Below are positions 2,642 through 21,976 of a stretch of DNA of 27,832 bases, piece by piece. The DNA comes from Chthonomonadales bacterium (GTDB lineage: Bacteria > Armatimonadota > Chthonomonadetes > Chthonomonadales > Chthonomonadaceae). The stretch spans positions 1 to 27,832 of the forward strand of contig JBBQPO010000047.1 of assembly GCA_038217285.1 (NCBI GenBank), written 5' to 3'. A program made the translations under genes and the position numbers. The notes under the pieces were generated by a model. It did no database searches. It was not told the origin of the DNA and saw only the letters and a program-made list of their open reading frames with translations. Position 1 is the stretch's first letter; each line of letters opens with the position of its first letter.

Positions 2642-2669
2642 TTTGGACAGAGACCCGTCCGGTTCCTGC
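2642..2669 (-). promoter_or_regulatory. Putative sigmaH-like promoter for pepD (weak -10)
   Basis: Minus strand GCAGGAACC-N12-GTCCAAA, ending 38 nt upstream of the start codon. Confidence 0.35.
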
Positions 2670-2688
2670 TCATCCTACGGGCGTTCGT

Positions 2689-2715
2689 GCAGGAAATCGG
2701 GCCGAGGAAGCGAAA
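2689..2715 (+). promoter_or_regulatory. Putative sigmaH-like promoter for the VOC gene
   Basis: GCAGGAAAT-N11-AGCGAAA. Confidence 0.55.
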
Positions 2716-2785
2716 GAAGACGAGAAACCTCGTCAATCGGAACGCTCTGGGCAACACCGAACGAGACTGCCAACAGGAGACACGC

Positions 2786-3193
2786 GTGGATATACCAGTG
2801 GGAACAATACGGAGCATTTCGGAACTTGCCCTTTGGGTGAGCGACCTGGACCGGGCCATGGCCTTCTACATCGATCATCTCGGGTTCACGGTCGAGACAC
2901 ACGATCCGGGGAAGAACGCCTTCCTCAAGAGCGGTGATTTTCTGCTCGTGCTCTTTGTGCCGGAAAGCCCCGGAACCGCCCTCGCCACCGAATATCTGGC
3001 CCGTGTGGGCAGCCCGCAGGGCGCCGTCTATCATGTCGCCTTCCGGATAGAGCCAGATCACCTTGATACGACCGGCGAAACCCTGCGCGCCTGCGGCCTC
3101 AGCGTCTCGGGCCCGGTGAATTTCGGCACGGGCCGCCGCTCCTATTTCCTGGAAGACCCCGACCGGCACTACATCGAACTCACCGACCGCTAA
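2786..3193 (+). CDS. VOC (glyoxalase/bleomycin-resistance/dioxygenase) family protein
   Basis: ELALWVSDLDRAMAFYIDHLGF ... HVAF ... SYFLEDPDRHYIEL pattern. AGGAG (2775-2779) precedes the in-frame GTG at 2786. Confidence 0.85.
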   Translation: MDIPVGTIRSISELALWVSDLDRAMAFYIDHLGFTVETHDPGKNAFLKSGDFLLVLFVPESPGTALATEYLARVGSPQGAVYHVAFRIEPDHLDTTGETLRACGLSVSGPVNFGTGRRSYFLEDPDRHYIELTDR

Positions 3194-3228
3194 GTAGCCG
3201 GACATAGTTCCCTCGTAATTTCTATTAT

Positions 3229-3333
3229 CGGGGTTAAAACCCCGCGCTGACTGGGGAAGTCCGCCTTCGCGGACTCAATGCATTCGAGTCCGCGAAGGCG
3301 GACTTCCCATATCAGAACGGCAATTCATTGCCG
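3229..3333. repeat. REP/REPIN-like inverted doublet (family A): perfect 23-bp inverted repeat with nested and flanking hairpins
   Basis: GGGAAGTCCGCCTTCGCGGACTC (3254-3276) / 9-nt loop / GAGTCCGCGAAGGCGGACTTCCC (3286-3308). Outer 16-nt hairpins at 3229-3244 and 3318-3333. Confidence 0.8.
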
Positions 3334-3366
3334 GGAAAAGTGCGGATGAATTACGTCCGACCGTTA

Positions 3367-3394
3367 GCAGGAATCCGAGCTGTTTCCACGCAAT
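3367..3394 (+). promoter_or_regulatory. Putative sigmaH-like promoter for Gfo/Idh/MocA gene 1
   Basis: GCAGGAATC-N12-ACGCAAT, 33 nt before ATG 3427. Confidence 0.45.
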
Positions 3395-3426
3395 GTGACA
3401 GCAGATTCTACCGAGAGGGCAACCAC

Positions 3427-4719
3427 ATGACATCACACTCCAATCGACGCAGATTTCTCCGCCAGTCGTTTCTGGCCGGGGCCGGCTTCTGGCTCGCGAC
3501 AGACGCCACGATGGCGCACGCTTATCGCGCCAATGAAAAGCTTAACCTGGGCGTTGTCGGCGTGTCGGGGCGCGGTGGCGACAACCTGCACGAGGTCGCA
3601 GGCCAGAATATCGTGGCGCTCTGCGACATCGACGACAACAACCTGGCAGGCGCGGTGAAGCAGTTTCCCGAGGCCAAAACCTACAACGATTTCCGCAAGA
3701 TGCTCGAACAGAAGGAGATCGATGCCGTCGTGGTCAGCACACCCGACCATACACACGCCGTGATCGCGTCGGCGGCGCTTCAGGCCGGCAAGCATGTCTA
3801 CTGCGAGAAGCCACTGGCGCACTCTGTCTGGGAAGTGCGGCATCTGACGGAGTTGGCAAGGAAGCAGAAGCGCGTCACGCAGATGGGCACGCAGATCCAT
3901 GCAGGCTCGAACTATCGGCGGGTGGTCGAGGTGATTCGCAGCGGCGCGATCGGGGATATCAGCGAGGTGCATGTCTGGGCGGATCGTGTCTGGTCCGGCA
4001 ACGGGCGTCCACCCGAGACACCCCCAGCGCCTGCAAATATCCACTGGGATCTGTGGCTCGGTCCTGCGCCCGAGCGACCCTATAACCCGGCCTATCTCCC
4101 GGCCACCTGGCGCGGTTTCTGGGAGTTCGGCAACGGCACACTCGGCGATATGGCCTGTCATCACATGGACCTGCCGTTCTGGGCGCTGGAGCTCGGCGCT
4201 CCGACGACTGTCCGCGCCGAAGGCCCTGAAGTCAACCTGGAGACGACGCCCGCCTGGCTTATCACGCATTATGAGTTCGCGGCGGCCAATGGCAGGTCGC
4301 CGCTGACCCTGCACTGGTACAACGGCGGGAAACGTCCGCCCCAGTTTGCAGAGAACCTTCTGCCTGCCTGGGGCGACGGCACCCTTTTTGTGGGCAGCAA
4401 AGGCATGCTGCTGGCGGACTACGGACGCTATGTGCTCCTCCCGGAAAAGGATTTCAGCGGCTATACGCCGCCAGCGCCGACGATCCCCGACTCCATCGGC
4501 CACCACGCCGAGTGGATTGCGGCCTGCCTGTCGGGTGGACCCACCACCTGCAACTTCGACTACTCCGGCAATCTCTCCGAGGCGGTTTTGCTCGGCTGCG
4601 TGGCCTACCGCACCGGGCAGACGATCGAGTGGGACCCCAAACATCTGAGAGCCAGGCACTGCAAGGCGGCGGATGCGATCTTGAAGCCGCATTTCCGACA
4701 CGGCTGGAAGCTGGCCTGA
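3427..4719 (+). CDS. Gfo/Idh/MocA family NAD(P)-dependent oxidoreductase with twin-arginine signal peptide
   Basis: SNRRRFL with a hydrophobic stretch and AHA cleavage site. Rossmann GVVGVSGRG, STPDHTH, YCEKP, QMGTQ, WLGPAP, GDMACHHMD. ATG 3427 preferred over TTG 3328, which lies inside the repeat. Confidence 0.9.
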   Translation: MTSHSNRRRFLRQSFLAGAGFWLATDATMAHAYRANEKLNLGVVGVSGRGGDNLHEVAGQNIVALCDIDDNNLAGAVKQFPEAKTYNDFRKMLEQKEIDAVVVSTPDHTHAVIASAALQAGKHVYCEKPLAHSVWEVRHLTELARKQKRVTQMGTQIHAGSNYRRVVEVIRSGAIGDISEVHVWADRVWSGNGRPPETPPAPANIHWDLWLGPAPERPYNPAYLPATWRGFWEFGNGTLGDMACHHMDLPFWALELGAPTTVRAEGPEVNLETTPAWLITHYEFAAANGRSPLTLHWYNGGKRPPQFAENLLPAWGDGTLFVGSKGMLLADYGRYVLLPEKDFSGYTPPAPTIPDSIGHHAEWIAACLSGGPTTCNFDYSGNLSEAVLLGCVAYRTGQTIEWDPKHLRARHCKAADAILKPHFRHGWKLA

Positions 4720-4777
4720 ACGGTTTGCCTCCCCTCTGCGTAGAATAGGGACGAACAACCTGCGGGAGGAGACGAAA

Positions 4778-5572
4778 GTGGTTTTTGCCTGGTTTGCCGA
4801 ACATCGGCGTGAGGAGTTACGCGAACAGCCGTTTCCGGAGGAGTGGCTCGCCTATCTGGAGAAGAACGTCGGTCACTATCCCTACCTGTCGGAGAGCGAG
4901 CAGGCGACGCTGCGCGACGATCTGCGTATCCTGCTCAAGGAGAAGACCTGGGAGGGCGGCGGGGGCCTGAAACTTACCGAAGAGATGCAGGTGACCATCG
5001 CCGCCGAAGCGAGCCTGCTGCTGCTGGGACTGGAACACGAATACTATCCCAATGTCGATTCTATCGTGGTCTATCCGCAGGACTATGTCGCTCTGGCGCG
5101 AACACGGGACCCAAGCGGCGTGGTGGACGAGTACGGCAGCACACGTCTGGGAGAGGCCTGGGACACCGGCCCGGTCGTGCTCTCCTGGTCGGATGCGCGT
5201 TCCGGCAGTCTCAACCCGACCGACGGCCACAACGTCGTGCTGCACGAGTTCGCCCATAAGCTCGATATGCGCGATGGTGCGGCGGACGGCGTCCCGAAAC
5301 TGGAGGACGACACGCAGTATGAGTCGTGGGCCGAAGTGATGAGCAAGGAGTTTGCGGAGCTGGTCGCGCAGACCGAAAAGGGCCACAAATCTCTGCTCGA
5401 CTCCTATGGCGCCACCAACCCGGCGGAATTCTTCGCCGTCGCGACCGAGTGTTTCTTCGAGAAGTCGGTTCTGCTGGCAGAGCGTCACCCGCGCCTGTAC
5501 GCCGTCCTGCGCGATTTCTATCATCAAGACACCGCCAAACGCATGGGTGCTCGACAACCCGAAGCGACCTGA
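4778..5572 (+). CDS. mtfA: Zinc-dependent peptidase, MtfA / peptidase M90 family
   Basis: IVVYP, GEAW..GPVVLSW, DGHNVVLHEFAHKLD, LDSYGATNPAEFFAVATECFFE. GGGAGG SD before GTG. Confidence 0.85.
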   Translation: MVFAWFAEHRREELREQPFPEEWLAYLEKNVGHYPYLSESEQATLRDDLRILLKEKTWEGGGGLKLTEEMQVTIAAEASLLLLGLEHEYYPNVDSIVVYPQDYVALARTRDPSGVVDEYGSTRLGEAWDTGPVVLSWSDARSGSLNPTDGHNVVLHEFAHKLDMRDGAADGVPKLEDDTQYESWAEVMSKEFAELVAQTEKGHKSLLDSYGATNPAEFFAVATECFFEKSVLLAERHPRLYAVLRDFYHQDTAKRMGARQPEAT

Positions 5573-5659: not shown

Positions 5660-8107
5660 TCAGCGTGCTTTGAGGCGGAGAACGCTGGCGGAGTAAGGCG
5701 GAAAGGTGTGCGAGAAGACAGGTTTCTTCGTCTTCAGGCGCACGGTTTCAGGCGCGATCTTCGTCGGCGCCTCGACGGAGTTTACGTCGCCGGGCTGGCC
5801 TGCCAGCACAATCGCTTTTCCGCCCTCTACCTTCTGCACACCCTGCAGGTCGATCTCCAGCGCCTGTGGGGTTCCCGAGACGTTGACCACCTTCAGAATC
5901 ACATCGCCGGTCTTCGCCTCTCGGCTGGCAGTGGCGTAGAGAGGATCAGGCGCAGGAGACGGCGTATCGACGGCCTCGGTGATCAGTTTGTCATCGAGGA
6001 AGCAGCGAATACTCTTGCCCTGTACCTCGATACGCAGATCGTACCAGCGGCCCGTCTCAACGGCCATACTGGTGACGTTGCCGATCTCGGCCTTTACGCC
6101 GCTGGTTGCGCGCTCCAGGATGGTGCGAGTGTTGCCCCAGCCGCCAACATTCCACCAGACGAAGTTGTCGCTGTCCTGCACATGGAACAGAACCAGAAAG
6201 CCTTCGCGACCCCCGAGCTTGCGTGCTTTCACGCGATAGGTATAGTCTGTCCACTGCGGATCTCCGACGACCGCGCGGGAGTCCTCGGTATTGCCGGACT
6301 GGCGCAGCACACCGTCCTGCACGGTCCAGGTTCCCGACCCCTTCTTCCAGTCTGCAAGGCCCGCCGTGAAGTCGTGCCGATAGAGCGTCTGTGCACCTTG
6401 CGTCACCTGGACGTCTTTGTACTCGGCCTGCGTGATCCATGTGCCGACCCCGATTCCACCCCTCGGCACGAAGGCGACGGTCGGCGCAATCGACTGCGGC
6501 ACGATCTCGACCGGCAGCACGACATCGCCGCGATTGGTTCCGAACATCTTCTGCACATAGTAGGAAGGCGAACCGAAACTGTGGAGCGCATCGTAGCCGA
6601 TAAGGTTGGTGCCCCACTGCCGCGCCCCGCGATTAACATTTACCAGCAGCGGCGCGTAGCATTCGATCGGCACGATGTCGGAGTTGCGTTCGAGGCCGGT
6701 GAGCCAGGCGGCATCGCCGAGGGCCGCCTGAAGCGTCGGAGTCGGGCTTCCCTCCGTCGATGCCCACTCGCCGACGAATATCTTCGGTCCCTTGCGATCG
6801 GTGTGGTCGTAGTGGTGGGCATCGCGCTCCATGGCGCGCGCCGAACGGTAGTAGTGGTCGTCGATCACGTCCGGACGGCGGCTTTTGACCGCGGTCGTAG
6901 CGATCAGCTGTAGAGCCGGGTATTTCGCCTTGATGGCGTCGAAGAACTGGGTGAAGCGGCCGTCGTAGCTGCCGGAGCGGTCGAACTCGTCTTCATTTCC
7001 AATCTCGACGTATTGCAGAGGGAACGGAGCAGGATGGCCGTCCTTCGCGCGTTGCGCTCCCCAGGGCATCGTCGTGTCACCGGTCAGGTATTCGATCTCA
7101 TCCAGCGCATCCTGTACGAAGGGCGTCAACTGCGGGCCTGCGGCGATATGTTCCCCCTGCAACGCGTATCCGGCGAAGACCGCCAGAATGGGTTCCATAT
7201 GCAGGTCCTGGCACCACTCCAGATACTCCAGCAGGCCGAGGCCATCGGTCGAACGATAACCCCACGGGCAGAGATGACCGGGCCGCTGCGCTGGGCTGCC
7301 CAGCGTCTGCTTCCAGTCGAACCGCTCGGCAATCGTGTTGCCTTCCAGGTAGTTGCCGCCGGGCAGGCGCAGAAAGGCAGGCTGCATCGCGCCCATCAAC
7401 TTCATCAGGTCCGGCCGGGTCCCATTCGCGCGCCTATGATAGGTGGGTGGGAAGAGCGACACCATGCTGAACCAGACCGTTCCGGGACCGTTCACCGATA
7501 GAATGAACCGGTTGGTCGTGGAGGGGATCGCATCGCCGCCGGTCTTCAAAACGACCGAAACCCGCTTCCACGCAGAGGTCAGGCCGGAAACAGAGGCGTG
7601 TGCAAAGACGGTCGTGCCGTCACTGCTCTCGATACCGACTCTCAGCGGGCCATGAAAATCGGGAGCGCACCTCGCATAGAACGACGCGCGATACCGCGTA
7701 TTCGGCTTGACCGGGATCCCCCAGTAGCCGTCGTTCGCGATCCCCGCCCGTCCGCTCGCCCCGACCGCCGTCAGCTTCAGCGCAGTGGGCAACGCGGCGT
7801 TCACGGGCTGCGAACTATCGAGGACAGCCGACCCCGTCAGCGCGCCTTCCTGCACGACAGACCAGTGCACCGCCTGCGTCGGGTTGTCTTTGAAGGCTCG
7901 GTTCTGTATCAGCTCGGCGTAGAGGCCGCCATCGTACGCATGATTGATCTCTTCGGTCATCAGACCGTAGAACATCGGGCTGATCTTGACTCCCGGCCGA
8001 TCTACTCCGACCGTGAGCCTGCCCCGTTGGGCGCCAGCGTTGTGGGTCAGAGCGACAGCAAGAAGCGCCAGAATGAGGCGAACGCCTCCGGCAAGTGAGA
8101 TTCGCAT
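5660..8107 (-). CDS. Secreted alpha-L-arabinofuranosidase (GH51) with N-terminal CBM4/9-like domain and an inserted ConA/LamG-like beta-sandwich
   Basis: Signal peptide (MRISLAGGVRLILALLAVAL..AGA). Motifs EEINHAYDGGLYAELIQNR, RLPGGN, VEIGNE (acid/base), DDHYY, FVGEW (nucleophile), LERNSD, CYAPL, PSYYVQKMF. Start ATG 8107 follows AAAGGAA. Confidence 0.9.
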   Translation of the reverse strand: MRISLAGGVRLILALLAVALTHNAGAQRGRLTVGVDRPGVKISPMFYGLMTEEINHAYDGGLYAELIQNRAFKDNPTQAVHWSVVQEGALTGSAVLDSSQPVNAALPTALKLTAVGASGRAGIANDGYWGIPVKPNTRYRASFYARCAPDFHGPLRVGIESSDGTTVFAHASVSGLTSAWKRVSVVLKTGGDAIPSTTNRFILSVNGPGTVWFSMVSLFPPTYHRRANGTRPDLMKLMGAMQPAFLRLPGGNYLEGNTIAERFDWKQTLGSPAQRPGHLCPWGYRSTDGLGLLEYLEWCQDLHMEPILAVFAGYALQGEHIAAGPQLTPFVQDALDEIEYLTGDTTMPWGAQRAKDGHPAPFPLQYVEIGNEDEFDRSGSYDGRFTQFFDAIKAKYPALQLIATTAVKSRRPDVIDDHYYRSARAMERDAHHYDHTDRKGPKIFVGEWASTEGSPTPTLQAALGDAAWLTGLERNSDIVPIECYAPLLVNVNRGARQWGTNLIGYDALHSFGSPSYYVQKMFGTNRGDVVLPVEIVPQSIAPTVAFVPRGGIGVGTWITQAEYKDVQVTQGAQTLYRHDFTAGLADWKKGSGTWTVQDGVLRQSGNTEDSRAVVGDPQWTDYTYRVKARKLGGREGFLVLFHVQDSDNFVWWNVGGWGNTRTILERATSGVKAEIGNVTSMAVETGRWYDLRIEVQGKSIRCFLDDKLITEAVDTPSPAPDPLYATASREAKTGDVILKVVNVSGTPQALEIDLQGVQKVEGGKAIVLAGQPGDVNSVEAPTKIAPETVRLKTKKPVFSHTFPPYSASVLRLKAR

Positions 8108-8252: not shown

Positions 8253-8280
8253 GGAGGAAAAACGCCTGTCTGTGCCGAAC
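8253..8280 (+). promoter_or_regulatory. Putative sigmaH-like promoter for the DUF3500 gene
   Basis: GGAGGAAAA-N12-GCCGAAC, 54 nt upstream of ATG 8334, overlapped by an inverted repeat (8244-8275). Confidence 0.5.
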
Positions 8281-8333: not shown

Positions 8334-9380
8334 ATGTTGACACGACGCGATATGGTTCTGGGGAGTACGCTGGCGGCGACTGTCGCCCTCGCCGATCAGG
8401 CGAGCGGCAGGCAGAGAAAACCGACGATGGCGCATGCTGCCGCTGATTTCCTCACCTCTCTCGATGCGGAGCAGAAGCATAAGGCCCAACTGCCCTTCAA
8501 CTCGGAGGAGCGGTTCGTCTGGCACTATGTGCCGATGGAGCGCAAGGGGCTGCACTATAAGGAGATGACCCCGGAGCAGCAGAAGCTGGCGCAGGCGCTG
8601 CTTCTGGTCGGGTTGAGCAAGACCGGCTTCAAGAAGATCGAGACCATCCGGCAACTGGAGCTTGTGCTGCGCGAGATCGAAAAAGGCTCTGGCCCGGTGC
8701 GCGACCCCGGTCTCTACTACTTTGCGATCTTCGGTGATCCAGACCCGAAAGGCACCTGGGGCTGGCGCTACGAGGGACATCATGTCTCGCTGCACTGGAC
8801 GTCGCTGAAGGGAAAGATCATCGCGAGCAGCCCACAGTTTCTGGGCAGCAATCCGGGAGAGGTACGCTCCGGGCCGCAAAAGGGCACGCGCGTGCTCGCC
8901 GCCGAGGAGGATCTCGGTCGTGCGTTGGTCAAATCGCTCGACGAGCAGCAGCGCCAGGAGGCCATTCTGAGCGCCAACGCGCCGGCAGACATTCTGACGG
9001 CGGCTTCCCGCAAAGCCGCGATTCTCGACGACAAAGGCATCGCGTACAGGCAGTTGAACAAGGAGCAGCAGGGTCTGCTCCTCACCCTCTTGGAAGAGTA
9101 CGCGCACGTGCAGGTGCAGGAGATCGCGAAGCAGCGGCTGGAAGCCGTTCGGAAAGCAGGGATGGCCGACGTCAAGTTCGCCTGGATGGGCGGAATCGAA
9201 AAGGGCGAGCCGCACTACTACCGCATTCAGGGCGCGACCTTCCTCGTCGAATACGACAACACGCAGAACGACGCCAACCATATCCACACTGTGTGGCGCG
9301 ACTTCAAGGGCGACTTCGGGGTAGATCTGCTGGCCCTCCACTACCACACCGCCGACCACGATCACGGTCACGACGTCTAG
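8334..9380 (+). CDS. DUF3500 domain-containing protein with Tat-like signal peptide and His-rich tail
   Basis: LTRRDMV signal. Motifs WHYVP, YYFAIFGDP, WGWRYEGHHVSL, PQFLGSNP, HYYRIQG, EYDNTQNDANHIHTVWRD..DFG. AGGAG SD before ATG 8334. Confidence 0.85.
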   Translation: MLTRRDMVLGSTLAATVALADQASGRQRKPTMAHAAADFLTSLDAEQKHKAQLPFNSEERFVWHYVPMERKGLHYKEMTPEQQKLAQALLLVGLSKTGFKKIETIRQLELVLREIEKGSGPVRDPGLYYFAIFGDPDPKGTWGWRYEGHHVSLHWTSLKGKIIASSPQFLGSNPGEVRSGPQKGTRVLAAEEDLGRALVKSLDEQQRQEAILSANAPADILTAASRKAAILDDKGIAYRQLNKEQQGLLLTLLEEYAHVQVQEIAKQRLEAVRKAGMADVKFAWMGGIEKGEPHYYRIQGATFLVEYDNTQNDANHIHTVWRDFKGDFGVDLLALHYHTADHDHGHDV

Positions 9381-9505: not shown

Positions 9506-9527
9506 TGTGGAAGGTTGTTTCGCTTTC

Positions 9528-10343
9528 TCAGGCGTTGCGGGCGAACTGTGGGAAGAGTTCGTCGTGGAGTCGGGCAGGCTGCTCCAGGTGGGTACTGCGC
9601 TGCGCATCGGCGGTGTCCAGCATCATCGCGAAGAACATTCCGGCGCCAGTCGCGACGTTGTAGCCGCCCGGCGAGTGGACGCGGATATAGTCCCGCCCGC
9701 GAACAAGCTCTTCCTCGGTATGACAGCGGCGGATACAGTTCATCGTGAACATCCGTCGGCGCGTCCCGCCGCCCCAGGCCGAATGGTAGGTGTCGTGGTT
9801 GAACACGAGGATGTCACCGGGAGTGGTCTCCAGCGCGACATTGCCCGGAAAGTCGCGGGGCGCGATCCCAAACAACTCCTCGGACTTGTTCAGGTTGATC
9901 TTGTGCTTGCGCACGTAGTGATCGGGGTCCTGACTGCCGGGCAGGACCCGCAGACAGCCGGTGTCACGGGTCAATGGGTCAAGGTAGAAGGCGACTTTGA
10001 CAGCGAACTTCTGGCCCCAGTTGCCGTCCGGATGCCAGCCGGTATCGCCGGAATAGTAGTTTCCATCGCCACTGCAGTAGTTGAAGTCCTCACCGATCAG
10101 GCCGCCGAGCAGCCCCGTGATGCGTGGATCGTCCAGCAGCATGCAGAGTTTTGCAGTACGCTCGATGGGCGCGCCGAACATGGTGCGGGTCGAGCCGTCG
10201 TGGTTCCGGCCCCCGCCAAAGTTCTGGATCGCGGTTTCGAACTCGACGGTGATCCAGGCCATCTCCTCCGGCGCAAAGAGCGCGGGCAGCATGAGATAGC
10301 CGAAGGTGTCGAAGTGCCGGACTTGCTGTTCGGACAGTTCCAT
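9528..10343 (-). CDS. Phytanoyl-CoA dioxygenase (PhyH) family Fe(II)/2-oxoglutarate dioxygenase
   Basis: LSEQQVRHFDTFGYL N-terminus, WHPD (HxD), YLD...GCLRVLPGS, PGDILVF..TYHSA, RR. GGAGA SD. Confidence 0.85.
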   Translation of the reverse strand: MELSEQQVRHFDTFGYLMLPALFAPEEMAWITVEFETAIQNFGGGRNHDGSTRTMFGAPIERTAKLCMLLDDPRITGLLGGLIGEDFNYCSGDGNYYSGDTGWHPDGNWGQKFAVKVAFYLDPLTRDTGCLRVLPGSQDPDHYVRKHKINLNKSEELFGIAPRDFPGNVALETTPGDILVFNHDTYHSAWGGGTRRRMFTMNCIRRCHTEEELVRGRDYIRVHSPGGYNVATGAGMFFAMMLDTADAQRSTHLEQPARLHDELFPQFARNA

Positions 10344-10367
10344 GGTTGGTCTCCATTGATCCAGAAA

Positions 10368-11738
10368 TCAGACGGGCAGTTTCCACGGCGCGCGATAGGG
10401 GCGGCTCAGCATTTTGGAGGCTTCCGGGTCGCCCAGGATGTGCTCCTTGTCCGGATCCCATTTCAGGCTGTTGCGGCCCAGTCGCATCGCGATATTGCCG
10501 AGATGGCAGATGGTGATGGAGCGATGGGCGACCTCCACCGGGGCGATCGGCTCCTTACGCGAGAGGACGCAGTCGATGAAGTTGCGGTAGTGGTGGTCGC
10601 TCTGGTAGAGATGGATCTCGTTGGGACCGATGACGGAGTTTAGAATCTCTTTTGAGGAGGCGTCGTGCTGCCCCCGGTCGGCCCAGACCCAGCCGTCCGT
10701 GCCCTGCCAGGTGACGCCGCCCCGCTCCTTGTTGGAGACGATCATTTTGACGCCGTCTTTATAGATCGCCTCGAAGTAGTATTCGGTCGCCGTGTTCCAG
10801 AGGGGGTCGGGCGGGAACTCCGCTTTGGGATTACGGATCTCGATGGGGCCGGTAAGCTCGGTTCCCATCCCCCACTGCGCGCAGTCCGGGTGATGGCCGC
10901 CCCAGTCGGTGACCTGCCCACCGGAGTAGTCGTAGATCCAGCGGAAGTTCACAAAGCAGCGGGCCGGCGCATACTCTGCGTGCGGCGCAGGACCGAGCCA
11001 GGTCTCGTAGTCGAAGCCTGCCGGCACGGGTTCGGGCTTCTTGCGGTCGCCGGTATGGCCGTAGTCCGGGCGTCCGCCCGGCAGACCGCAACGAACCGTC
11101 TGCAGTTTGCCGATCCGGCCGTTGCGCACCAGTTCGCAGGCTCGGCGGAAGTTCTTGTCGGAACGTTGCTGACTGCCCGTCTGGAGGATGCGCTTGTACT
11201 TGTGGATGGCATTGCTCATGGCGCGGCCGTCCGCGATGGTCAGGCCGAGCGGCTTCTGGCAGTAGATGTCTTTGCCCGCCTTCGCGGCGGAGATCGCGAC
11301 CAGTGCGTGCCAGTGGTCGGGAGTCGCGACTTCGACGGCGTCGATATCCTTGCGGGCCAGCACCTCTCGAAAATCGGAGTAGGTGTCGCAGCCTTTATAG
11401 GTGCCGGACGCCTTCTGGTCCGCATACGCCTGCTCGACCCAGAGCTTTGCCGGTTCTCGGCCTCCCAGCGCACCGTCCCAGTAGCCCGCACTCTCCTTGT
11501 TGACGTCGCAGACAGCCACGACCTGGACGCGCTCATCGCCCAGAAACACCCGCATGTCGTTGGTGCCCTGGTTGCCGGTGCCGATAAATGCCATCGTGAT
11601 CCGGTTGCTCGCCGCGACCTTGCCGTCTCGTCCCAGCGCCGAAGCCTGCACCACATACGGGAATCCCACGGCCCCGACCGCAGTCGCCGCCGCTGCCCTT
11701 AAAAATGAGCGACGGGAAGTTTCAGTCTCTGATACCAT
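10368..11738 (-). CDS. Gfo/Idh/MocA family oxidoreductase with twin-arginine signal peptide
   Basis: TSRRSFLR signal, FIGTGNQG, ATPDHWH, YCQKP, QTGSQQRS, WLGPAP, DWGGHHPD. AGAGGA SD before ATG 11738. Confidence 0.9.
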   Translation of the reverse strand: MVSETETSRRSFLRAAAATAVGAVGFPYVVQASALGRDGKVAASNRITMAFIGTGNQGTNDMRVFLGDERVQVVAVCDVNKESAGYWDGALGGREPAKLWVEQAYADQKASGTYKGCDTYSDFREVLARKDIDAVEVATPDHWHALVAISAAKAGKDIYCQKPLGLTIADGRAMSNAIHKYKRILQTGSQQRSDKNFRRACELVRNGRIGKLQTVRCGLPGGRPDYGHTGDRKKPEPVPAGFDYETWLGPAPHAEYAPARCFVNFRWIYDYSGGQVTDWGGHHPDCAQWGMGTELTGPIEIRNPKAEFPPDPLWNTATEYYFEAIYKDGVKMIVSNKERGGVTWQGTDGWVWADRGQHDASSKEILNSVIGPNEIHLYQSDHHYRNFIDCVLSRKEPIAPVEVAHRSITICHLGNIAMRLGRNSLKWDPDKEHILGDPEASKMLSRPYRAPWKLPV

Positions 11739-14900: not shown

Positions 14901-14953
14901 CCAGCGTCTGTCTGGCTCTCTACAATCTCGACGAAGCCCTGACCCGCGAATAA
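11945..14953 (+). CDS. Planctomycete-type cytochrome c / DUF1549 / DUF1553 (PSD1) protein
   Basis: Signal peptide. VDFTREVLPVL..CFQCH ... RMP ... WIDQGA (cytochrome c). HWAY..P, RRVTLDLTGLPPT, YGERMA..WLD.ARYADS, CAQCHDHKYDP (DUF1549). NPLTARVQVNRLWQ..FG.GLV, PTHPELLDWLA, SATYRQSS, TPLHAL..LND (DUF1553). Confidence 0.92.
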   Translation: MLTGRLHRLWILTCLVAFCLCQGMAMGQKATLQKVDFTREVLPVLKAHCFQCHSGAQQQGGLSLGSRALILKGGASGTSVVPGNGSKSPLVIRALGQGGKARMPLGFAPLPEAQIALLRTWIDQGAIWPDPKSAQKHWAYIKPVRTKLPKVVHPGWVRNPVDAFVLARLERAGLTPSAEADRVTLLRRVTLDLTGLPPTPREVDAFLADKSAKAYATVVDRLLASPHYGERMALPWLDAARYADSNGFQQDGDTYQYLWRDWVIHAYNSNMPFDQFTIQQLAGDLLPNATDDQKIATGFNRCHLLNGEGGAIAEEQRNVILFDRVDVTATTWLGATLACAQCHDHKYDPLTQRDYYSMMAFFNNVPESGTPPGGGQYRIADPWIVATADDDKMKLKAFEDRITAAQTAAHAYLDAHSAELQTAQVAWETSALKTVATVPKLDGWTAVGPFAAASFDAAYDTDFGPEKSLDLTATYDAGKLRWRSHPEWIDGKVYQLDGENSAFYLTRTIYAARPQPLALSFGSDDAIKVWLNGKQIVADKASRAAAPDQDKVTVTLNTGANVLLVKIVNGGGIGGFTFKAQEQGLPGPILAILQTAPAARTEAAAQQIRDYYLTNFPPAELKEPRDRALAAMKERDAYRLTLPRVMVMSDAMPRKTHILDRGNYEMPRDEVKADTPVSLASLPPGAPHNRLGLAQWLISPDNPLTARVQVNRLWQTFFGTGLVKTSENLGTQSEPPTHPELLDWLAVEFRESGWDVKKLIRLLVTSATYRQSSKVTPALRLRDPENKLLARSARFRLSSLSLRDVALASSGLLDPRLGGKPVYPYQPKGIWDGLAITKERDFTYPQSQGADLFRRSLYTFWRRTVAPSNMFDTSVRNTCKVRLTVTSTPLHALTTLNDVTWVEAGRALAEHVMKEAGPRPDARLTEAFRRVCARRPAPDELLILRHSLNRALAVYRADPKAAEAFLKSGESPRDAALDPVEHAAYASVCLALYNLDEALTRE

Positions 14954-14969
14954 CAGGAGACGACCGCTC

Positions 14970-16436
14970 ATGAACCCGGAATTTGAAAACGCGCTCGCGC
15001 TCTCCCGCCGTCAGTTCTTCGGCCGCGCTGCCACAGGGGTCGGCATCGCGGCGCTGGCGAGCCTGCTCCAGCAGGACGGCCTCGCCGCCATCCCGCAAGC
15101 CAGTGCGGGCATGCCGCCCTTGCCTGGCCTGCCCCACTTCAAGCCGACCGCGAAGCGTGTCGTCGTGCTCTGGCAGGGCGGCGCGCCCTCGCATGTCGAT
15201 CTGTTCGACCACAAGCCGGGGCTGATGGCGCGGCGTGGGGAGCAGATCCCGGACAGCATTCGCGCCAAGGGCCGGCTCTCCAGTATGACCGCCGGACAGA
15301 AGAACTATCCGGTCCTGCCGCCTATCAAGCCGTTCCAAGCCTATGGCAAATCCGGCACGATGCTCTCGACCATGCTGCCGCACATCGGCTCTATCGTGGA
15401 CGAGATCTGCCTGGTGAAGTCGATGCACACGGAGGCGGTCAACCATGCGCCGGGCGTTACCTTCTTCCTGACCGGCAGCCAGATACCGGGTCGACCGAGT
15501 CTGGGCGCCTGGGCGACCTACGGACTGGGCAGCATGAGCAACGACCTGCCCTCCTACTGTGTCATGACCTCGACCGATCAGGGCAAGACCTGCGGGCAGC
15601 TCTTCTACGACTACTACTGGGGTAGCGGCTTCCTGCCGTCGAAGTACCAGGGGGTGCGGTTTCGGGGGGAGGGCGATCCGGTCCTCTATCTGGCAAATCC
15701 GGACGGGATGTCCCGCACACTGCGGCGCGGCGTCCTGGACGACCTCGCCGCGCTCAACAAACGCCATAGTACCGACTACGGCGATCCGGAGATCGAGACT
15801 CGCATCACGCAGTATGAGCTGGCCTACCGTATGCAGACCAGCGTCCCCGACCTGCTCGACATCTCGAAGGAGCCTGCGGCGGTTCTGGAGATGTACGGGC
15901 CGGACGTCCACCGCAACGGCTCCTTCGCGCGCCACTGTCTGCTCACCCGCCGCCTGATCGAGCGCGGGGTGCGTTTTGTGCAGCTCATGCACGGAGGCTG
16001 GGACCAGCACAGCAACCTGGACACGCAGCTAGAGCTCCAGTGCCGCGACACCGATCAGCCCTCCGCCGCGCTCGTCATGGATCTCAAACAGCGCGGCCTG
16101 CTCGACGATACGATCGTCCTCTGGGGCGGCGAGTTCGGACGCACCCCCTTCGTGCAGGGCGACCTCTCGAAACCGGCAGGTCATGGCCGCGACCATCTCG
16201 GCTCGGCCTACAGTATGTGGGTCGCAGGCGGAGGCTTCAAAGGCGGCACCATCTACGGCGAAACCGACGACTACTGCTACAACGTCGCCAAAGACCCCGT
16301 CCACATCCACGACCTCCAGGCGACCATACTCCACGCCCTGGGCATCGACCATACCCGCCTCACCTACCGCTACCAGGGCCGCGACTTCCGTTTGACAGAC
16401 GTCTACGGTAATGTCGTCAAGCCGCTCCTGGCATAA
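14970..16436 (+). CDS. DUF1501 domain-containing protein (alkaline phosphatase/sulfatase-like superfamily) with Tat signal
   Basis: LSRRQFF, GGAPSHVDLFDHKP, NHAPG, YELAYRMQ, RRLIERGVRFVQ, WDQH, GEFGRTP, GRDH, RLTDV.G. AGGAG SD, 16 nt after the PSD1 gene. Confidence 0.92.
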   Translation: MNPEFENALALSRRQFFGRAATGVGIAALASLLQQDGLAAIPQASAGMPPLPGLPHFKPTAKRVVVLWQGGAPSHVDLFDHKPGLMARRGEQIPDSIRAKGRLSSMTAGQKNYPVLPPIKPFQAYGKSGTMLSTMLPHIGSIVDEICLVKSMHTEAVNHAPGVTFFLTGSQIPGRPSLGAWATYGLGSMSNDLPSYCVMTSTDQGKTCGQLFYDYYWGSGFLPSKYQGVRFRGEGDPVLYLANPDGMSRTLRRGVLDDLAALNKRHSTDYGDPEIETRITQYELAYRMQTSVPDLLDISKEPAAVLEMYGPDVHRNGSFARHCLLTRRLIERGVRFVQLMHGGWDQHSNLDTQLELQCRDTDQPSAALVMDLKQRGLLDDTIVLWGGEFGRTPFVQGDLSKPAGHGRDHLGSAYSMWVAGGGFKGGTIYGETDDYCYNVAKDPVHIHDLQATILHALGIDHTRLTYRYQGRDFRLTDVYGNVVKPLLA

Positions 16437-16766: not shown

Positions 16767-17975
16767 TCAGTAGCGATCCGGAAGGCACATGTGTGGAAAG
16801 CGAAGTGGGAAGAGAATTGCCAGCAGTCTAGCAGTCTCCGCGTTCGGAGTCTGGGGCAGACGAGCAACAAGGTCGTCTGTTGGGAAAGCGCCTAGAGCCA
16901 GTCGCGCCAGTTCTGTTTGCGGCATCGCTATCCGCAACACATTTCCGAACGTGTTTTCGGTGCCTGTTTCTACGGTGACAGCATCCGGAGTGATGTGAAG
17001 CGTTGCGTCGCCCAGATCTGTTTCGAAAACGAGTGCACCGACAAACGGAGAGTGTGCGGCGTGGAGACGTGCCTGTAGTTCGGAGGCGAGCGCATGCAGC
17101 AGACGGGTTACGTCGAGGACGCGGGCCATCGAGTCACCGGAGGCGCTGAAGTTCTGCATAAACCGGGCCTCCTGACGCATGGCGGCTACGGCAAGGGCGC
17201 CCTCGGGTGGGAAGGCCAGAACGACCTGTTTCACTTTGCGCTGCTCTGCCTCGGCCTGTGCCCACTGCCGGCAGGCGGCGAGTGCTGCATCGGCGGCTAT
17301 CGGGTCGTCCGCCATCACCTCTCCCAGAACCAGTGCGTCCTTGAAATCCGTTTCCAGTTTGTGCTTCACATACCAGCACCACCGCGCCCGCCACACGTAG
17401 CCGTGCAGCGTTCCCTCTGGCCCAATCACCACATGGCAGGCGTCGCGTTCACCCTCCTCGGATTCTGCTGTGAAATGCGACCAGACCCCGCCCTGTGCGG
17501 GTCGTACAGCGACTCCGACCGACTGCGTAGTACACTGTGCATAGAGGGCCTGCATCGCCGGAAGGTCCGAGGCGACAAAGTCACGCACAGTCCAACCGGT
17601 CGGCAGGACGTTGTCACGCTCCAGGTTGGTTAGAAGGACGAGATAGTCCGGCCCGGCGGTAGCGTATCCGAACTTCGGGTAGAAGTCGGAGATGCCGTAG
17701 AGCATGGAGAGCGCGCCTTCTCCCGCGCGCATGTGGGTGACGGCGGCCTCCAGAACACGACGCGAGTAGCCACGACGCCGATGATGGGCGTCCGTCCCTA
17801 CCCCGCCGATGCCGTCCATACGCACGGTCGCCGCGCCGATACGCAGCGTAAAGGGGATGATCGAGAGCCAACTGACCTTGCGTCCGCCTACCATGAGGTT
17901 CACAGAGGTCCCGCCGCTGTCCGAGTCGGTGCGAATGACGATTTCGGAGGATTCACTCGTTGTTGTGCCAGGCAT
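16767..17975 (-). CDS. Eis-like GNAT N-acetyltransferase (tandem GNAT plus SCP2-like C-terminal domain)
   Basis: GIGGVGTDAHHRRRGYS (motif A), SMLYGISDFYPKFGY, second GNAT-like region, MARVLDV..., LARLALG C-terminal domain. AAGGAG SD adjoining the pgm stop. Confidence 0.8.
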   Translation of the reverse strand: MPGTTTSESSEIVIRTDSDSGGTSVNLMVGGRKVSWLSIIPFTLRIGAATVRMDGIGGVGTDAHHRRRGYSRRVLEAAVTHMRAGEGALSMLYGISDFYPKFGYATAGPDYLVLLTNLERDNVLPTGWTVRDFVASDLPAMQALYAQCTTQSVGVAVRPAQGGVWSHFTAESEEGERDACHVVIGPEGTLHGYVWRARWCWYVKHKLETDFKDALVLGEVMADDPIAADAALAACRQWAQAEAEQRKVKQVVLAFPPEGALAVAAMRQEARFMQNFSASGDSMARVLDVTRLLHALASELQARLHAAHSPFVGALVFETDLGDATLHITPDAVTVETGTENTFGNVLRIAMPQTELARLALGAFPTDDLVARLPQTPNAETARLLAILFPLRFPHMCLPDRY

Positions 17976-17986
17976 CGAAACTCTCC

Positions 17987-19642
17987 TTAACCTCTGGTGG
18001 CTCCAGCGAGGGCATCGCTGACGATGGTCTGGGCCTCTTCCTGGATGCGCTTGAGGTGATCCTCGCCCTGAAAGCTCTCGGCATAGATCTTATAGATGTT
18101 CTCGGTGCCGGAGGGACGGGCCGCAAACCAGCCGCTGGCCGTCTCTACCTTGAGGCCACCGATGGGAGCGCCGTTCGAGGGCGCGGTGGTCAGGATCTTC
18201 TCGATCTTTTCGCCGGCAAGCTCGGTAGAGCGCACCTGATCCGGAGAGAGCTTCGCCAGAATCGCCTTCTGCTCCGGCGTGGCGGGCGCTTCGATACGGT
18301 CGTAGACAGGATCGCCCAGTTCGGCGGTGAGGCCCGCGTAGACCTGACCAGGATCCTGGCCAAGACGCGCCTTGATCTCTGCGGCGAGCAGCACCATGAT
18401 AAGGCCGTCTTTGTCGGTCGACCAGGCCGAGCCATCCTTGCGAACGAAGGACGCCCCGGCGCTCTCTTCCCCGCCGAAGCCCAACGAGCCGTCCAGCAGC
18501 CCGTCCACAAACCACTTGAAGCCAACGGGAACCTCGGTGAGTTTCCGACCGACTTTCGCGGTCACGCGGTCGATCATCCGGCTGCTGACGAGGGTCTTGC
18601 CGACCGCCGCGACAGGGCTCCAGCCGGGCCGATGCTGGAACAGGTAGTAGATGGCGACGGCCAGATAGTGGTTCGGCGGCAGCAGGCCGCCGCTTGGGGT
18701 GACGATGCCGTGCCGGTCGTGGTCGGGGTCGCAGGCTCCAGCGACATCGAAGCGGTCCTTCAGGCCGATCAGGCTCTGCATCGCGTAGGAAGAGGACGGG
18801 TCCATACGAATCTTGCCGTCCCAGTCCACCGACATAAAGCGGAAGGTAGGATCGACGCCGGTGTTGACCACGGTCAGGTTGAGACCATAACGCTCGGCGA
18901 TCGGTCCCCAGTAGTGCACCCCAGCCCCGCCCAGCGGATCGACGCCCAGCCGGACATTCGCGCCTCGCAGAACCTCCATGTCGATCACGTTGCCGAGATC
19001 GGCGGTGTAGGCATCGATGAAGTTGTGGCGCTGCGTGGTGGGCGCCCGCAGCGCCTTCTCCACGGAGATTCGTTTGACGTCACGCAGGCCGTTGGCGAGA
19101 AACTCGTTCGCCTTCGTCTCGATCCATTTGGTGATCGAGGTGTCCGCCGGCCCCGCGCTTGGCGGATTGTATTTGAATCCTCCATCCTGTGGCGGGTTGT
19201 GCGAGGGCGTGATCACAATGCCGTCGGCGAGCCCGATCGTGCGCCCCCGGTTGTGGGTGAGAATGGCGTGGGAGATCGCCGGGGTCGGCGTGTACTCATC
19301 GTTCGGCGCGATCCTCACATCGACCTCGTTCGCGGCCAGCACCTCCAGCGCCGTGGCCAGGGCCGGCGTGGAGAGCGCATGGGTGTCCATACCCAGATAG
19401 AGTGGCCCGTCGATCCCCTGCTGTTCTCGGTAGAGACAGATGGCCTGACTTATCGCCAGGATATGCTTCTCATTGAAGGACCTCTCGAAGGCGGATCCGC
19501 GATGCCCGGAGGTGCCGAAGGCCACCCGCTGCGCCGGGACAGCCGGGTCTGGTGATTCGGTATAGTAAGCGGTGATCAGCGCAGGGATATTGACCAGCAT
19601 GGCCTCTGGGGCCGGCTTGCCGGCAAGCGGACTCACATTCAT
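17987..19642 (-). CDS. pgm: Phosphoglucomutase (alpha-D-glucose-1,6-bisphosphate dependent)
   Basis: [15 protein letters not shown] (phosphoserine), DPDHDRH (metal loop), [20 protein letters not shown]. Confidence 0.97.
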
Positions 19643-19668
19643 AATGACTTTCCTTTTCTAAAAGCAAC

Positions 19669-20469
19669 CTACCCGTTCAGGAACTGTTTCAGGAACGCGA
19701 CGCTCTTGGGCAGCGCCTGCTCGGCTGGCCCAGAGAGGCCGCACTCAAAGGCCATATAGCCCGTAAAACCGATCTCTTTGAGCGCCGTCATGATCGCGCC
19801 GAAGTCGATATCGCCGCTGCCGGGCTCCTGGCGCGTGTTGTCGGCCAGATGGACATGACCGATACAGTCCGCAACGTCGCGCAGGGTCGCGGGGCTGTTG
19901 GTCTCTTCGATGTGCATGTGAAACACATCCGACATCAGACGGACGCTCTTGCTGTTGAGGGCGCGCACGATCACCGCTCCGTCGCGCTGTTTGGGCAGAC
20001 TGTTGGACTCGTAGCGGTTCAAGGGCTCCAGCAGGATAGCGGCCCCCACCTGTTCGGCATGCGGAATCACGGTTTGCAGCATCGCCAGCAGCAGTTCCTT
20101 TTCCGCCTCCGCGCGCGACTTCCAGGGCGACATATCGGGCACACGGTCGTTCGCATTGAAGATCGGGACCGTGATCGGTCCGACCGCACCCAGTTCGGCG
20201 GCGTAGTCGAGATGCCGCTTCAACGCATCCACGCAGATCTGGCGACGGGCGCGGTCGGCATGCACCAGTTCCGCCGGGTGACCGCCACAGATCGACGAGG
20301 CGCGCACCGGGCTGTCCCGCAACACCTCACGGCGCTCCGCCAACTTCGCCGCATCGTTCAGATGACCGCCATTCAACTCCACGCCTACAAAACCATAGCG
20401 CTCCAGATTTTTGACCTTCTCGGCGAACGTCTCACCGGGAACCAGCCCTTCCTGACAGGACAGTTTCAT
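19669..20469 (-). CDS. Sugar phosphate isomerase/epimerase family (AP endonuclease 2 / xylose-isomerase-like TIM barrel)
   Basis: LEPLNRYE, DVFHMHIEE, HVHLADN.R.EPGSG.IDF, GFTGYMAFEC metal-ligand pattern. GAAGGAG SD before ATG 20469. Confidence 0.88.
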   Translation of the reverse strand: MKLSCQEGLVPGETFAEKVKNLERYGFVGVELNGGHLNDAAKLAERREVLRDSPVRASSICGGHPAELVHADRARRQICVDALKRHLDYAAELGAVGPITVPIFNANDRVPDMSPWKSRAEAEKELLLAMLQTVIPHAEQVGAAILLEPLNRYESNSLPKQRDGAVIVRALNSKSVRLMSDVFHMHIEETNSPATLRDVADCIGHVHLADNTRQEPGSGDIDFGAIMTALKEIGFTGYMAFECGLSGPAEQALPKSVAFLKQFLNG

Positions 20470-20497
20470 ATTGTAAGTTCTCCTTCGAAGGTTGAAT

Positions 20498-21811
20498 TCA
20501 GTCTCGGACAGCGGCGGAGACCATCTCCAAGACACGGCGCAGGCCATCGTCGCCGCCTCGGCTGCCTTCGTTGAAGGGGGTGCCGGGGATCGGTTTCCAG
20601 TTGTCGCGGGAGGTGTCCGGGGTGAAGGTCAACGGAATGCCCGCCAGCGCCGGATCGTACTGGCCGTTGTTGCCGCCCATTTTGTAAATCACCAGATCAA
20701 GCGAGGGCACGACGAAGATACCGAAGCCGCCCGCGCCCGATTTGTAGTAGGCGTCTCGCGGCGCGCCCGCCACATGCCCGTCCGAGTTGTTCTCGAACAT
20801 CAGACTGAACGGCGTATGCACATTGTAGGGGAGCGGCTTGTTGCATTTCGCCACGTAGTCCGCAGGTACCAACTGCTTGTCCCCCCATCGCCCCTCGTGC
20901 AGCAGGCAGTAGCCAAAGCGCATGGCGTCGGTGGCATGCACCGCCGTGCTCCCCGCGCCGTTGGCGTGGGGCATCGTATAGTCGCCGCGATGGAGGCAGT
21001 AGCCCCACGGCCCCCAGCCCATCGGTTTGGCAAGGCGCGCATCGATGTAGTCCTGCAGCTCCATTCCGGTGACATGCCTCAGAACGATGGAGGCGATGTG
21101 TGGCTCGGGAGAGGAGTAGGAGTAGCCGCCGCCCGGATCTGTCCAGAGCGGCGTTCGGAGCGAGGACTGGTCGAGATTGCGAATATCCTGACCGGGCACT
21201 GGCGATAGGCCGACGACCTGACCATGCACCACGCCAGGACTGCCACCCTCCCCATGGTAGCCCCCAGACATGCAGAGCAGTTGCCCGAGCGTGATGTCGG
21301 CTTTACGGGGATCGTCGAGCGGAAACGCTTCAGGAAGATATTTCTGCGTGAAGACCTTCGTATCGAGCCCCTCCGGGATCGCGCTGTGAAACTCCTGCAG
21401 CATGATACCGCAGGCGATGCTCGTATAGGCCTTACCGGTAGAGGCCATATCGGGATTGGCGTTGCGATCGGCGCGCCCAAAATACTTCTCGTAGACGAGA
21501 TAGCCATGCCTCACCACGACCAACCCACCGTTCTGGGTGCACCGCTGGGTGAAGTCGTAGGCCTGGTCCAGGCGGGCAAGATCCATACCGGCCAGCTTCC
21601 GGACGGAGGCCGCATCCTTGAGCGTGCGCCAGCCGCCTTTGCTGTCCGGAGGCGGAAAATAGTCGCCGGGTTTTGCTGTCGCGAGCCGCGGGAGGAGCAC
21701 CACCAGCAACGCGGCGCCAAGCAGCGTTATCAGGGGCAGGAACCTGCAGGCGTTACGGTGTCTGCAATACCGGAGCGCGCGGCGCGTAACGAAACCATTC
21801 GGATCAATCAT
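20498..21811 (-). CDS. Secreted serine hydrolase, beta-lactamase-related (class C-like) family
   Basis: MASTGK (SxxK), ITLGQLLCMSGG, PG..YSYSS (YxS), ARLAKPMG, YKSGAGG. Hydrophobic signal region. GAGG SD before ATG 21811, although the start is uncertain. Confidence 0.8.
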   Translation of the reverse strand: MIDPNGFVTRRALRYCRHRNACRFLPLITLLGAALLVVLLPRLATAKPGDYFPPPDSKGGWRTLKDAASVRKLAGMDLARLDQAYDFTQRCTQNGGLVVVRHGYLVYEKYFGRADRNANPDMASTGKAYTSIACGIMLQEFHSAIPEGLDTKVFTQKYLPEAFPLDDPRKADITLGQLLCMSGGYHGEGGSPGVVHGQVVGLSPVPGQDIRNLDQSSLRTPLWTDPGGGYSYSSPEPHIASIVLRHVTGMELQDYIDARLAKPMGWGPWGYCLHRGDYTMPHANGAGSTAVHATDAMRFGYCLLHEGRWGDKQLVPADYVAKCNKPLPYNVHTPFSLMFENNSDGHVAGAPRDAYYKSGAGGFGIFVVPSLDLVIYKMGGNNGQYDPALAGIPLTFTPDTSRDNWKPIPGTPFNEGSRGGDDGLRRVLEMVSAAVRD

Positions 21812-21949
21812 CGTGGGATACCTCGTGCAGCCCCAACGTCGGGACTGGAAATTCGTAGTCCAGGCGCCATCTACCGCAGTGCGCACCATGCAAGCCTTTG
21901 CAGGGTCGCCTACGGGCGGTGACTTCTCTCCCGGATACACGCTCCTTAT

Positions 21950-21976
21950 GTTCACCGTTGGTAGCGCCAATCCTCC
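21950..21976 (-). promoter_or_regulatory. Putative sigmaH-like promoter for the serine hydrolase-TIM barrel-pgm-GNAT operon
   Basis: Minus strand GGAGGATTG-N11-GGTGAAC. Confidence 0.45.

Follow-up and report, generated by a model that had tools for sequence, protein, structure and literature searches.

Sigma-H, the Spo0H-family alternative sigma factor of Bacillota, recognizes promoters with the two boxes RNAGGAWWW and RNNGAATWW (PMC8510167). In Sporomusa sphaeroides KIAC, the SigH promoters found by differential RNA sequencing have AGGA and GAAT boxes with a spacer of 17-18 nt; they make up the second-largest promoter class after SigA (322 transcription start sites, 16.1%), and their motifs drive central metabolic genes (PMC12456013). 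Almost nothing is known of transcription control in Armatimonadota, for which the sole printed genomic hint found is a Chthonomonas genome described as "disorganized", with few operons and many sigma factors (PMC4959169). In the literature searches made, no paper connected SigH with Armatimonadetes or Armatimonadota. The stretch of DNA analysed here (the window, 27,832 nucleotides, contig C47 of a draft genome) carries eight copies of a two-box motif that a first-pass annotation likened to sigma-H promoters. The host, which the same annotation took to be non-Firmicute, is indeed a soil bacterium of Armatimonadota, order Chthonomonadales. The motif is probably the promoter class of one SigH (Spo0H)-family alternative sigma factor, encoded on another contig (C174). 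The promoter type, the sigma family and the public naming of the protein as SigH are already known; no printed account was found of an extensive and conserved SigH-type regulon of catabolic genes in Armatimonadota.

The system resembles Bacillota sigma-H in both boxes, in geometry (a 12-nt gap here) and in having a small sigma factor with sigma-2 and sigma-4 domains that passes the NCBIfam cut-offs for SigH. It differs in its Armatimonadota host, in that SpoVS (PF04232) and SpoVG (PF04026) were not found in the 95%-complete genome, in the weak T after GAA, and in a sigma factor that misses the TIGR02859 cut-off. The predicted regulon, about tenfold larger than the 48 genes given for B. subtilis (PMC12456013), is dominated by carbohydrate-scavenging enzymes. 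Sporomusa shares the geometry and the class size (about 12% of the genes with upstream DNA here). It is, however, a spore former of Bacillota whose transcription start sites are mapped and whose gene content is that of acetogenesis (PMC12456013), whereas the system described here lies in another phylum, serves sugar and polymer scavenging, and has promoters predicted from sequence only.

Motif, spacing and separation from canonical promoters

The source genome is a 6.21-Mb draft (459 contigs, 60.4% G+C, 95% complete) in which a custom codon-usage caller of crude design finds 4594 genes (83% coding). Every position was classed on each strand as coding (sense or antisense) or intergenic, the latter divided into DNA that faces a gene start and DNA that faces a 3' end. 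A loose regular expression for the motif matches 318 times in intergenic DNA facing gene starts (0.308/kb) and 67 times in that facing 3' ends (0.080/kb), with 193 and 196 matches in coding sense and antisense DNA, respectively (0.037-0.038/kb). The enrichment and strand bias upstream of genes are thus genome-wide, at about fourfold per kb for start-facing over 3'-end-facing intergenic DNA.

The spacing was controlled with the pattern AGGAWW-Nx-GAA (x = 6 to 21) facing gene starts, with the off-peak spacings serving as internal background. In this notation, AGGAWW-N16/N15-GAA equals AGGA-N18/N17-GAA, and N16, N15 and N17 correspond to spacers of 12, 11 and 13 nt between the full boxes. Matches number 187 at N16, 71 at N15 and 44 at N17, compared to 29-52 at the 14 off-peak spacings. 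The N16 excess is confined to intergenic DNA facing gene starts, the counts in the three other categories being 52, 32 and 27. When GAA is instead sought after 948 intergenic RVAGGAWW sites, it occurs 158 times at offset 16, 54 times at offset 15 and 15-34 times at other offsets. The 11-13 nt spacing put forward in the first-pass annotation is, therefore, fixed at 12 and 11 nt, while 13 nt shows no excess. Sigma-H promoters of B. subtilis have a spacer of 11-12 nt.

The promoter matrix was built by spacing-controlled subtraction of background. This procedure replaced an expectation-maximization refinement (two-block matrix), which was discarded after it had strayed into purine-rich sequence of the Shine-Dalgarno kind and kept inflating the number of sites. 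With one core position freed at a time and ten control spacings subtracted, A-G-G-A and G-A-A are almost invariant. The background-subtracted -35 box begins with a purine at -2 (G 0.73, A 0.23; R 0.96) and c (0.48), continues with the core A 0.99, G 0.90, G 0.98, A 0.85, and ends with A/G/T (0.53/0.25/0.16) and T/A (0.57/0.37). Twelve weakly informative bases separate it from the -10 box, which reads R (G 0.55, A 0.23; R 0.78), n, C 0.60, G 0.85, A 0.94, A 0.97, followed by T/C/A (0.37/0.28/0.24). The motif is thus the sigma-H consensus, boxes and spacing alike (PMC8510167, PMC12456013): the -35 box conforms to RNAGGAWWW, the -10 box conforms to RNNGAAT(WW) with its last letter weak because T after GAA reaches only 0.37, and N16/N15 is the AGGA-to-GAAT distance of 17-18 nt.

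Scored with this matrix at 12 or above, 529 sites face gene starts, 63 face 3' ends, 261 lie in coding sense and 176 in coding antisense DNA, for an estimated false discovery of 8-15%. At 14 or above, the corresponding counts are 375, 33, 95 and 49 (4-11%), while in the bin from 11 to 12 the estimate rises to roughly 46-84%. These false-discovery rates, like the richness of the window and the N16/N13 ratios of the order given below, are arithmetic on matrix or pattern counts. A site scoring at least 13 lies within 400 nt upstream of 412 genes, with a median distance of 72 nt from GAA to the called start codon; this is 9% of the 4594 called genes and about 12% of the 3317 genes with at least 40 nt of upstream DNA. 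The predicted class would, thus, comprise about 410-530 gene units.

Canonical promoters form a class of their own. The pattern TTGAC-Nx-TAnnnT peaks sharply at N18 (152) and N19 (104), with 5-35 at other spacings, and TATAAT is fivefold commoner facing gene starts than otherwise (419 vs 83). Among upstream regions of at least 80 nt, TTGAC-N18/19-TAnnnT occurs in 0.5% of the 404 that bear the motif and in 8.6% of the 2428 that do not; the figures for TGnTAnAAT are 1.2% and 6.3%, and those for TATAAT are 4.5% and 12.9%. Since canonical promoters are depleted where the motif occurs, the motif is argued to be the promoter itself and not an adjoining operator. It is, accordingly, highly improbable that the boxes are a transcription-factor site or a compositional or chance pattern. 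AGGA is also part of Shine-Dalgarno-like sequences that are enriched upstream of genes, and the discarded refinement drifted into just such sequence; yet the spacing is fixed at 16/15 nt, the sites are oriented towards genes about fourfold per kb, their median of 72 nt before start codons is too far for a ribosome site, and in related genomes the boxes are kept while the spacers diverge.

The abundance of canonical promoters also bears on the proposal that the sigma factor acts as a near-housekeeping one, which is overstated. The canonical class has its own spacing peak, the SigH-type class covers only the fraction of genes given above, the sigH-like gene itself lies behind a TTGAAT-N17-TATAAT promoter, and the window is unusual in that its density of SigH-type sites is about three times the genome average. 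The SigH-type class is, therefore, the second promoter class and not the first, much as in Sporomusa.

The SigH-like sigma factor and other possible readers

A SigH-family sigma factor, for which the first-pass annotation proposed a search, is present in the genome. A direct search of the genome with TIGR02859 gives one strong match (G000:C174:7323-7904, minus strand), which aligns with model positions 1-194 of 198 at 234.4 bits; the second-best sigma factor of the genome reaches 42.6 bits. The 234-aa product has sigma-2 and sigma-4 domains. Over residues 19-215 its scores exceed the cut-offs of NF006148 (243 bits vs 208) and NF006145 (239.5 bits vs 212), NCBIfam equivalogs that are both named "RNA polymerase sporulation sigma factor SigH". 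Its sequence match in the PDB is 3mzy_A, a Fusobacterium-type "RNA polymerase sigma-H factor", at 78 bits, compared to 42 bits or less for sigma factors of the extracytoplasmic function (ECF) group. Relatives at 77-97% identity carry the public annotation "sporulation sigma factor SigH", and an 88% identical sigma factor occurs in a metagenome-assembled genome titled Chthonomonas calidirosea (L056). The ESM Atlas, used for leads only, places the protein in an Armatimonadota cluster of its own, followed by Bacillota clusters named SigH/SigS. The neighbours of the gene are dehydrogenases and open reading frames (ORFs) without a Pfam family, with no Bacillus-like synteny; in Bacillus, sigH neighbours rpmG-secE-nusG.

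The motif and the gene co-occur across the phylum. Within the order, RVAGGAWW-N16-GAA exceeds its N13 control by at least 1.2-fold in 39 of 41 genomes (234 vs 76 in the genome of the window). The two exceptions, G030 (182/169) and G037 (176/176), carry a SigH-like gene of about 206 bits and are, therefore, useless as a natural-experiment test. A wider sample comprised 81 Armatimonadota genomes that are at least 90% complete, in which a SigH-like gene was called at E <=1e-20 (TIGR02859). Such a gene is present in 57 of the 81. An N16/N13 ratio of at least 1.5 is found in 34 of these 57 genomes and in none of the 24 others; the median ratio is 1.67 with the gene and 0.97 without it, and the pooled N16 and N13 counts of the 24 genomes without the gene are 2331 and 2323. 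The TIGR02859 scores in the phylum fall into two groups, at roughly 245-291 and 170-236 bits, and many genomes have a member of each, a pattern suggestive of an old duplication; the genome of the window has a single match, at 234 bits. Thermotoga maritima also matches TIGR02859 at E <=1e-20.

The rest of the sigma repertoire, which is large for a 6.2-Mb genome, supplies other possible readers. The primary RpoD (C87) scores 370.6 bits against TIGR02393, above the cut-off, and is accompanied by four RpoD-like paralogues of 300-384 aa (C103, C65, C358 and C231) that lie below all equivalog cut-offs. The existence of these paralogues leaves room for a reader among them (group 2-like), or for the primary sigma factor with an activator, but either is very unlikely. 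Group 1 and group 2 sigma factors recognise TATAAT-like -10 boxes, canonical promoters are a separate class that is depleted where the motif occurs, and a sigma factor whose family consensus equals the motif is at hand.

The genome has 47 Sigma70_r2 matches, of which 26 were scanned in this comparison. The remaining scanned sigma factors are ECF-like, as are about 40 in the genome and most of the 47 matches, and it is conceivable, if unlikely, that one of these roughly 40 ECF (group 4) proteins reads what is a real promoter class. ECF promoters, such as GGAAC-N16/17-CGT or the GGAAT-N18-GTT of actinobacterial SigH/SigR, share with this system the two-box layout, the GGAA in the -35 box, the fixed spacer and a sigma factor of two domains. 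The -10 box of Caulobacter SigF (ECF16) is CGAA. Three ECF-like genes (on C61, C94 and C159) themselves have the motif 38-53 nt upstream, and autoregulation is typical of ECF sigma factors. The hallmark letters of ECF promoters are, however, missing here: AAC is absent, C is rare at the two positions after AGGA (0.05-0.06), and the -10 box is GAA and not CGT or GTT. Every informative column follows the sigma-H consensus instead, including the R three before GAA and the R two before AGGA; the latter and the A before GG are near-invariant. In addition, the spacing excess occurs only in genomes of the 81-genome sample that have a SigH-like gene, at least 400 promoters are far above the usual size of an ECF regulon, and the matching sigma factor belongs to the Spo0H family and not to the ECF group.

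Besides the three ECF-like genes with the motif, several points weigh against assigning the motif to the C174 sigma factor, an assignment based on its family membership and the co-occurrence of gene and motif. The protein misses the cut-off of TIGR02859 (spore_sigH) at 234.4 vs 294.8 bits, a cut-off that is reached in none of the 81 Armatimonadota genomes (top score 291.2 bits). The T that follows GAA is only weakly conserved (T 0.37, C 0.28, A 0.24). Autoregulation of the sigH-like gene was considered and rejected, as no copy of the motif lies upstream of it. A further 23 of the 57 genomes with a SigH-like gene, as well as G030 and G037, have no excess at this crude pattern level, so presence of the gene is no predictor of a detectable regulon, and the p-value of the co-occurrence test is overstated because related genomes are not independent. 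The gene calls come from a crude caller, and the counts are slightly flattered because the intergenic set that was scored had also served to train the flanking columns of the matrix.

Regulon content and proposed mechanism

Families were defined by all-against-all BLAST, and Pfam was run on a random 52 of the 412 motif-bearing genes, drawn to exclude window genes and family representatives, and on 8 family representatives. The GFO/IDH/MocA paralogue family has the motif in front of 17 of its 43 members (p = 5e-8), compared to 9% of all genes. Weaker enrichments are seen for sulfatases (4/7), cyclase-AAA proteins (9/34) and DUF6785 proteins (4/9). Apart from this paralogue test, the Pfam content is a description and not an enrichment, as the sample has no matched background. 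The sample includes enzymes of sugars and sugar acids (myo-inositol oxygenase, altronate/galactarate dehydratase, ThuA, ROK, xylose-isomerase-like TIM barrels and enolase-superfamily enzymes), rhamnosidase, GHL6, sulfatases, solute-binding proteins, peptidases, amidohydrolases, PSCyt/PSD1 and DUF1501 proteins, two isocitrate/isopropylmalate dehydrogenases, and 10 proteins that have no Pfam family. In this sample and in the window, the motif thus precedes mostly genes of catabolic or exported enzymes, in agreement with the first-pass annotation.

In the proposed mechanism, RNA polymerase carrying the SigH-like sigma factor would place region 4 on G-c-AGGA-W-W and region 2 on c-GAA-t, 16 nt (less often 15) further on. 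Transcription would start some 7-10 nt after the GAA box, which, given the median distance of 72 nt to the start codon, would leave a typical leader of about 60 nt. The class would consist mostly of single genes and short operons for the scavenging of sugars, sugar acids and polymers, many of them in divergent, back-to-back arrangement. If the analogy with sigma-H of Bacillota holds, these scattered genes may be switched on together when nutrients run short. Such joint switching would fit a lineage described as operon-poor, and the regulon fits the published puzzle of the "disorganized" Chthonomonas genome, with its few operons and many sigma factors (PMC4959169). A broader and more doubtful possibility is that SigH is an old Terrabacteria-type sigma factor whose promoter code has stayed fixed across phyla, and that in Chthonomonadales it became a second general sigma factor that ties together several hundred dispersed scavenging units, replacing operons.

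If the assignment to SigH is correct, about 12% of the gene units of a whole order would gain a promoter code and a named sigma factor, and the sigma-H code would reach beyond Bacillota with boxes and spacing unchanged. It would also provide a list of several hundred co-regulated scavenging genes that is testable in cultured Chthonomonas calidirosea, and an aid to annotation that places DUF3500, DUF6785 and PSCyt/DUF1501 pairs in a carbohydrate-scavenging regulon.

The ECF-like genes with the motif upstream are C61:12950-13567, C94:15734-16342 and C159:9217-9945, all on the minus strand. Two of the three promoters are near-identical (GGAAGGAATC..GAAAC). The motif in front of these genes suggests a possible sigma cascade downstream of SigH.

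The eight sites of the window and their conservation

The pattern RNAGGAWNN-N11..13-RNNSAAN, searched on both strands, matches 10 times in the window. Two matches (8906+ and 12426-) lie within ORFs, and the other eight are the sites of the first-pass annotation, whose coordinates, spacers and letters are exact:

2642-2669, minus strand: SigH-type promoter candidate of an M20 dipeptidase gene (pepD-like, 1117-2604, minus strand), GCAGGAACC-12-GTCCAAA; matrix score 12.3, with both boxes non-consensus (AGGAAC, CAA)
2689-2715, plus strand: putative SigH-type promoter of a glyoxalase-fold gene (likely start 2786, stop 3193), GCAGGAAAT-11-AGCGAAA; matrix score 15.2, N15 class
3367-3394, plus strand: putative SigH-type promoter of a GFO/IDH/MocA oxidoreductase gene with a Tat signal (3427-4719, plus strand; Pfam), GCAGGAATC-12-ACGCAAT; matrix score 14.2, with CAA replacing GAA
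8152-8179, minus strand: putative SigH-type promoter of an alpha-L-arabinofuranosidase-like gene (5660-8107, minus strand), GCAGGATTT-12-AGCGAAC; matrix score 16.8, N16
8253-8280, plus strand: putative SigH-type promoter of a DUF3500 gene (8352-9380, plus strand), GGAGGAAAA-12-GCCGAAC; matrix score 18.7, the top site of the window
11781-11807, minus strand: putative SigH-type promoter of a second GFO/IDH/MocA oxidoreductase gene (10368-11669, minus strand) and possibly of the ORF behind it, GAAGGAATC-11-AGAGAAA; matrix score 15.6, N15
11838-11866, plus strand: weakest candidate, possible promoter of a PSCyt1/PSCyt2/PSD1 and DUF1501 pair (12020-16436, plus strand), GCAGGATTT-13-ACGGAAA; matrix score 11.7, with the N17 spacing that has no genome-wide excess
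21950-21976, minus strand: putative SigH-type promoter of a four-gene unit (16767-21811, minus strand) with beta-lactamase-fold, xylose-isomerase-like TIM, phosphoglucomutase and GNAT genes (Pfam), GGAGGATTG-11-GGTGAAC; matrix score 14.5, N15

Each of the eight lies in intergenic DNA and is directed at a gene start; 2689+ is within the longest-ORF call of the glyoxalase gene but precedes the GTG at 2786, the likely start of that gene. About 18 genes make up the window, arranged in roughly 13 transcription units (a unit count that is a reading of gene order), so that a site stands in front of 8 of roughly 13 units and the description of the motif as preceding most transcription units holds. Neither box of TTGACA-17-TATAAT is present at the eight sites. 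For units said to have TANAAT boxes instead, the ATG at 27673 is preceded by a perfect TATAAT (27618-27623), and a TAAAAT lies at about 22066. A simple sigma-70 scan finds no full promoter at 4680-4800, before the mtfA-like gene, and near 22 kb finds only CTGGCA-18-TATGAT at 22139-22168.

The divergent arrangement of sites is common in the genome. Divergent intergenic regions account for 236 of 411 motif-bearing upstream regions and for 930 of 2906 others. Back-to-back SigH-type pairs within 300 nt number 61, vs 13 in the opposite arrangement; thus, the three divergent pairs of the window are typical. In 11 of the 61 pairs, the AGGA boxes are 20-30 nt apart.

Conservation was followed in four genomes of the same genus (G001-G004), with coding DNA 66-86% identical by BLAST. 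In orthologous upstream regions the boxes are kept and the spacers diverge. The divergent sites 8253+ and 8179- occur in all five genomes (scores 14.4-18.7 and 14.0-16.8, respectively), the latter with diverged spacers, and the boxes of 2689+ are kept in 4/4 genomes. At 2669-, GCAGGAACC and the unusual GTCYAAA are both kept in 3/4 genomes around a diverged spacer. The motif of 3367+ lies upstream of the orthologue in 3/4 genomes, and in G004 the CAAT variant is kept at this position (GCAGGAATA-..-GGGCAAT). For 21976-, 3/4 genomes carry a site, with the N15 form kept in G003 (16.6) and G001 (14.0). The pepD-like gene and the four-gene unit with the phosphoglucomutase gene, both named by the first-pass annotation as behind the motif, thus carry it here and in congeners. 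At 11807-, the one collinear congener, G002, has a site scoring 14.4. At the position of 11838+, G002 has an N16 site (15.8) and G001 a weak one (10.7), and no site was found in G003 and G004. Conservation in the congeners, thus, supports the two weakest sites of the window (2669- and 11838+) too.

Rearrangements in two congeners involve these promoters. In G001 (C88; L184, L181), about 1.4 kb is inserted exactly between the divergent -35 boxes of 8179/8253, leaving each promoter with its own gene. In G002 (C55, L179), no glyoxalase gene separates the pepD-like and GFO genes, and the GFO oxidoreductase gene lies immediately behind a promoter of the 2689+ type.

The spacer between the glyoxalase and GFO genes of the window contains a palindromic repeat (3187-3367), with the 3367+ promoter beginning right at its edge. 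The repeat has dozens of matches in G003 and G002, in both orientations and often at contig ends, and looks like a mobile element of the miniature inverted-repeat or repetitive extragenic palindromic (MITE/REP) kind. A further site, GGAGGAGTG..GGAGAAG (4839-4866, plus strand; N16, score 14.5), lies in the 5' part of the M90 peptidase (mtfA-like) ORF and may be a chance match or an internal promoter. Long ORFs overlap on opposite strands at 9507-10643 (plus) and 9528-10343 (minus), neither with a Pfam family; the caller favours the minus-strand ORF, and this ORF would then share the 11807- promoter with the GFO gene. PSCyt1/PSCyt2/PSD1 and DUF1501 genes, of families with planctomycete names, lie behind SigH-type promoters in the window (11945-16436) and on other contigs (L122, L151).

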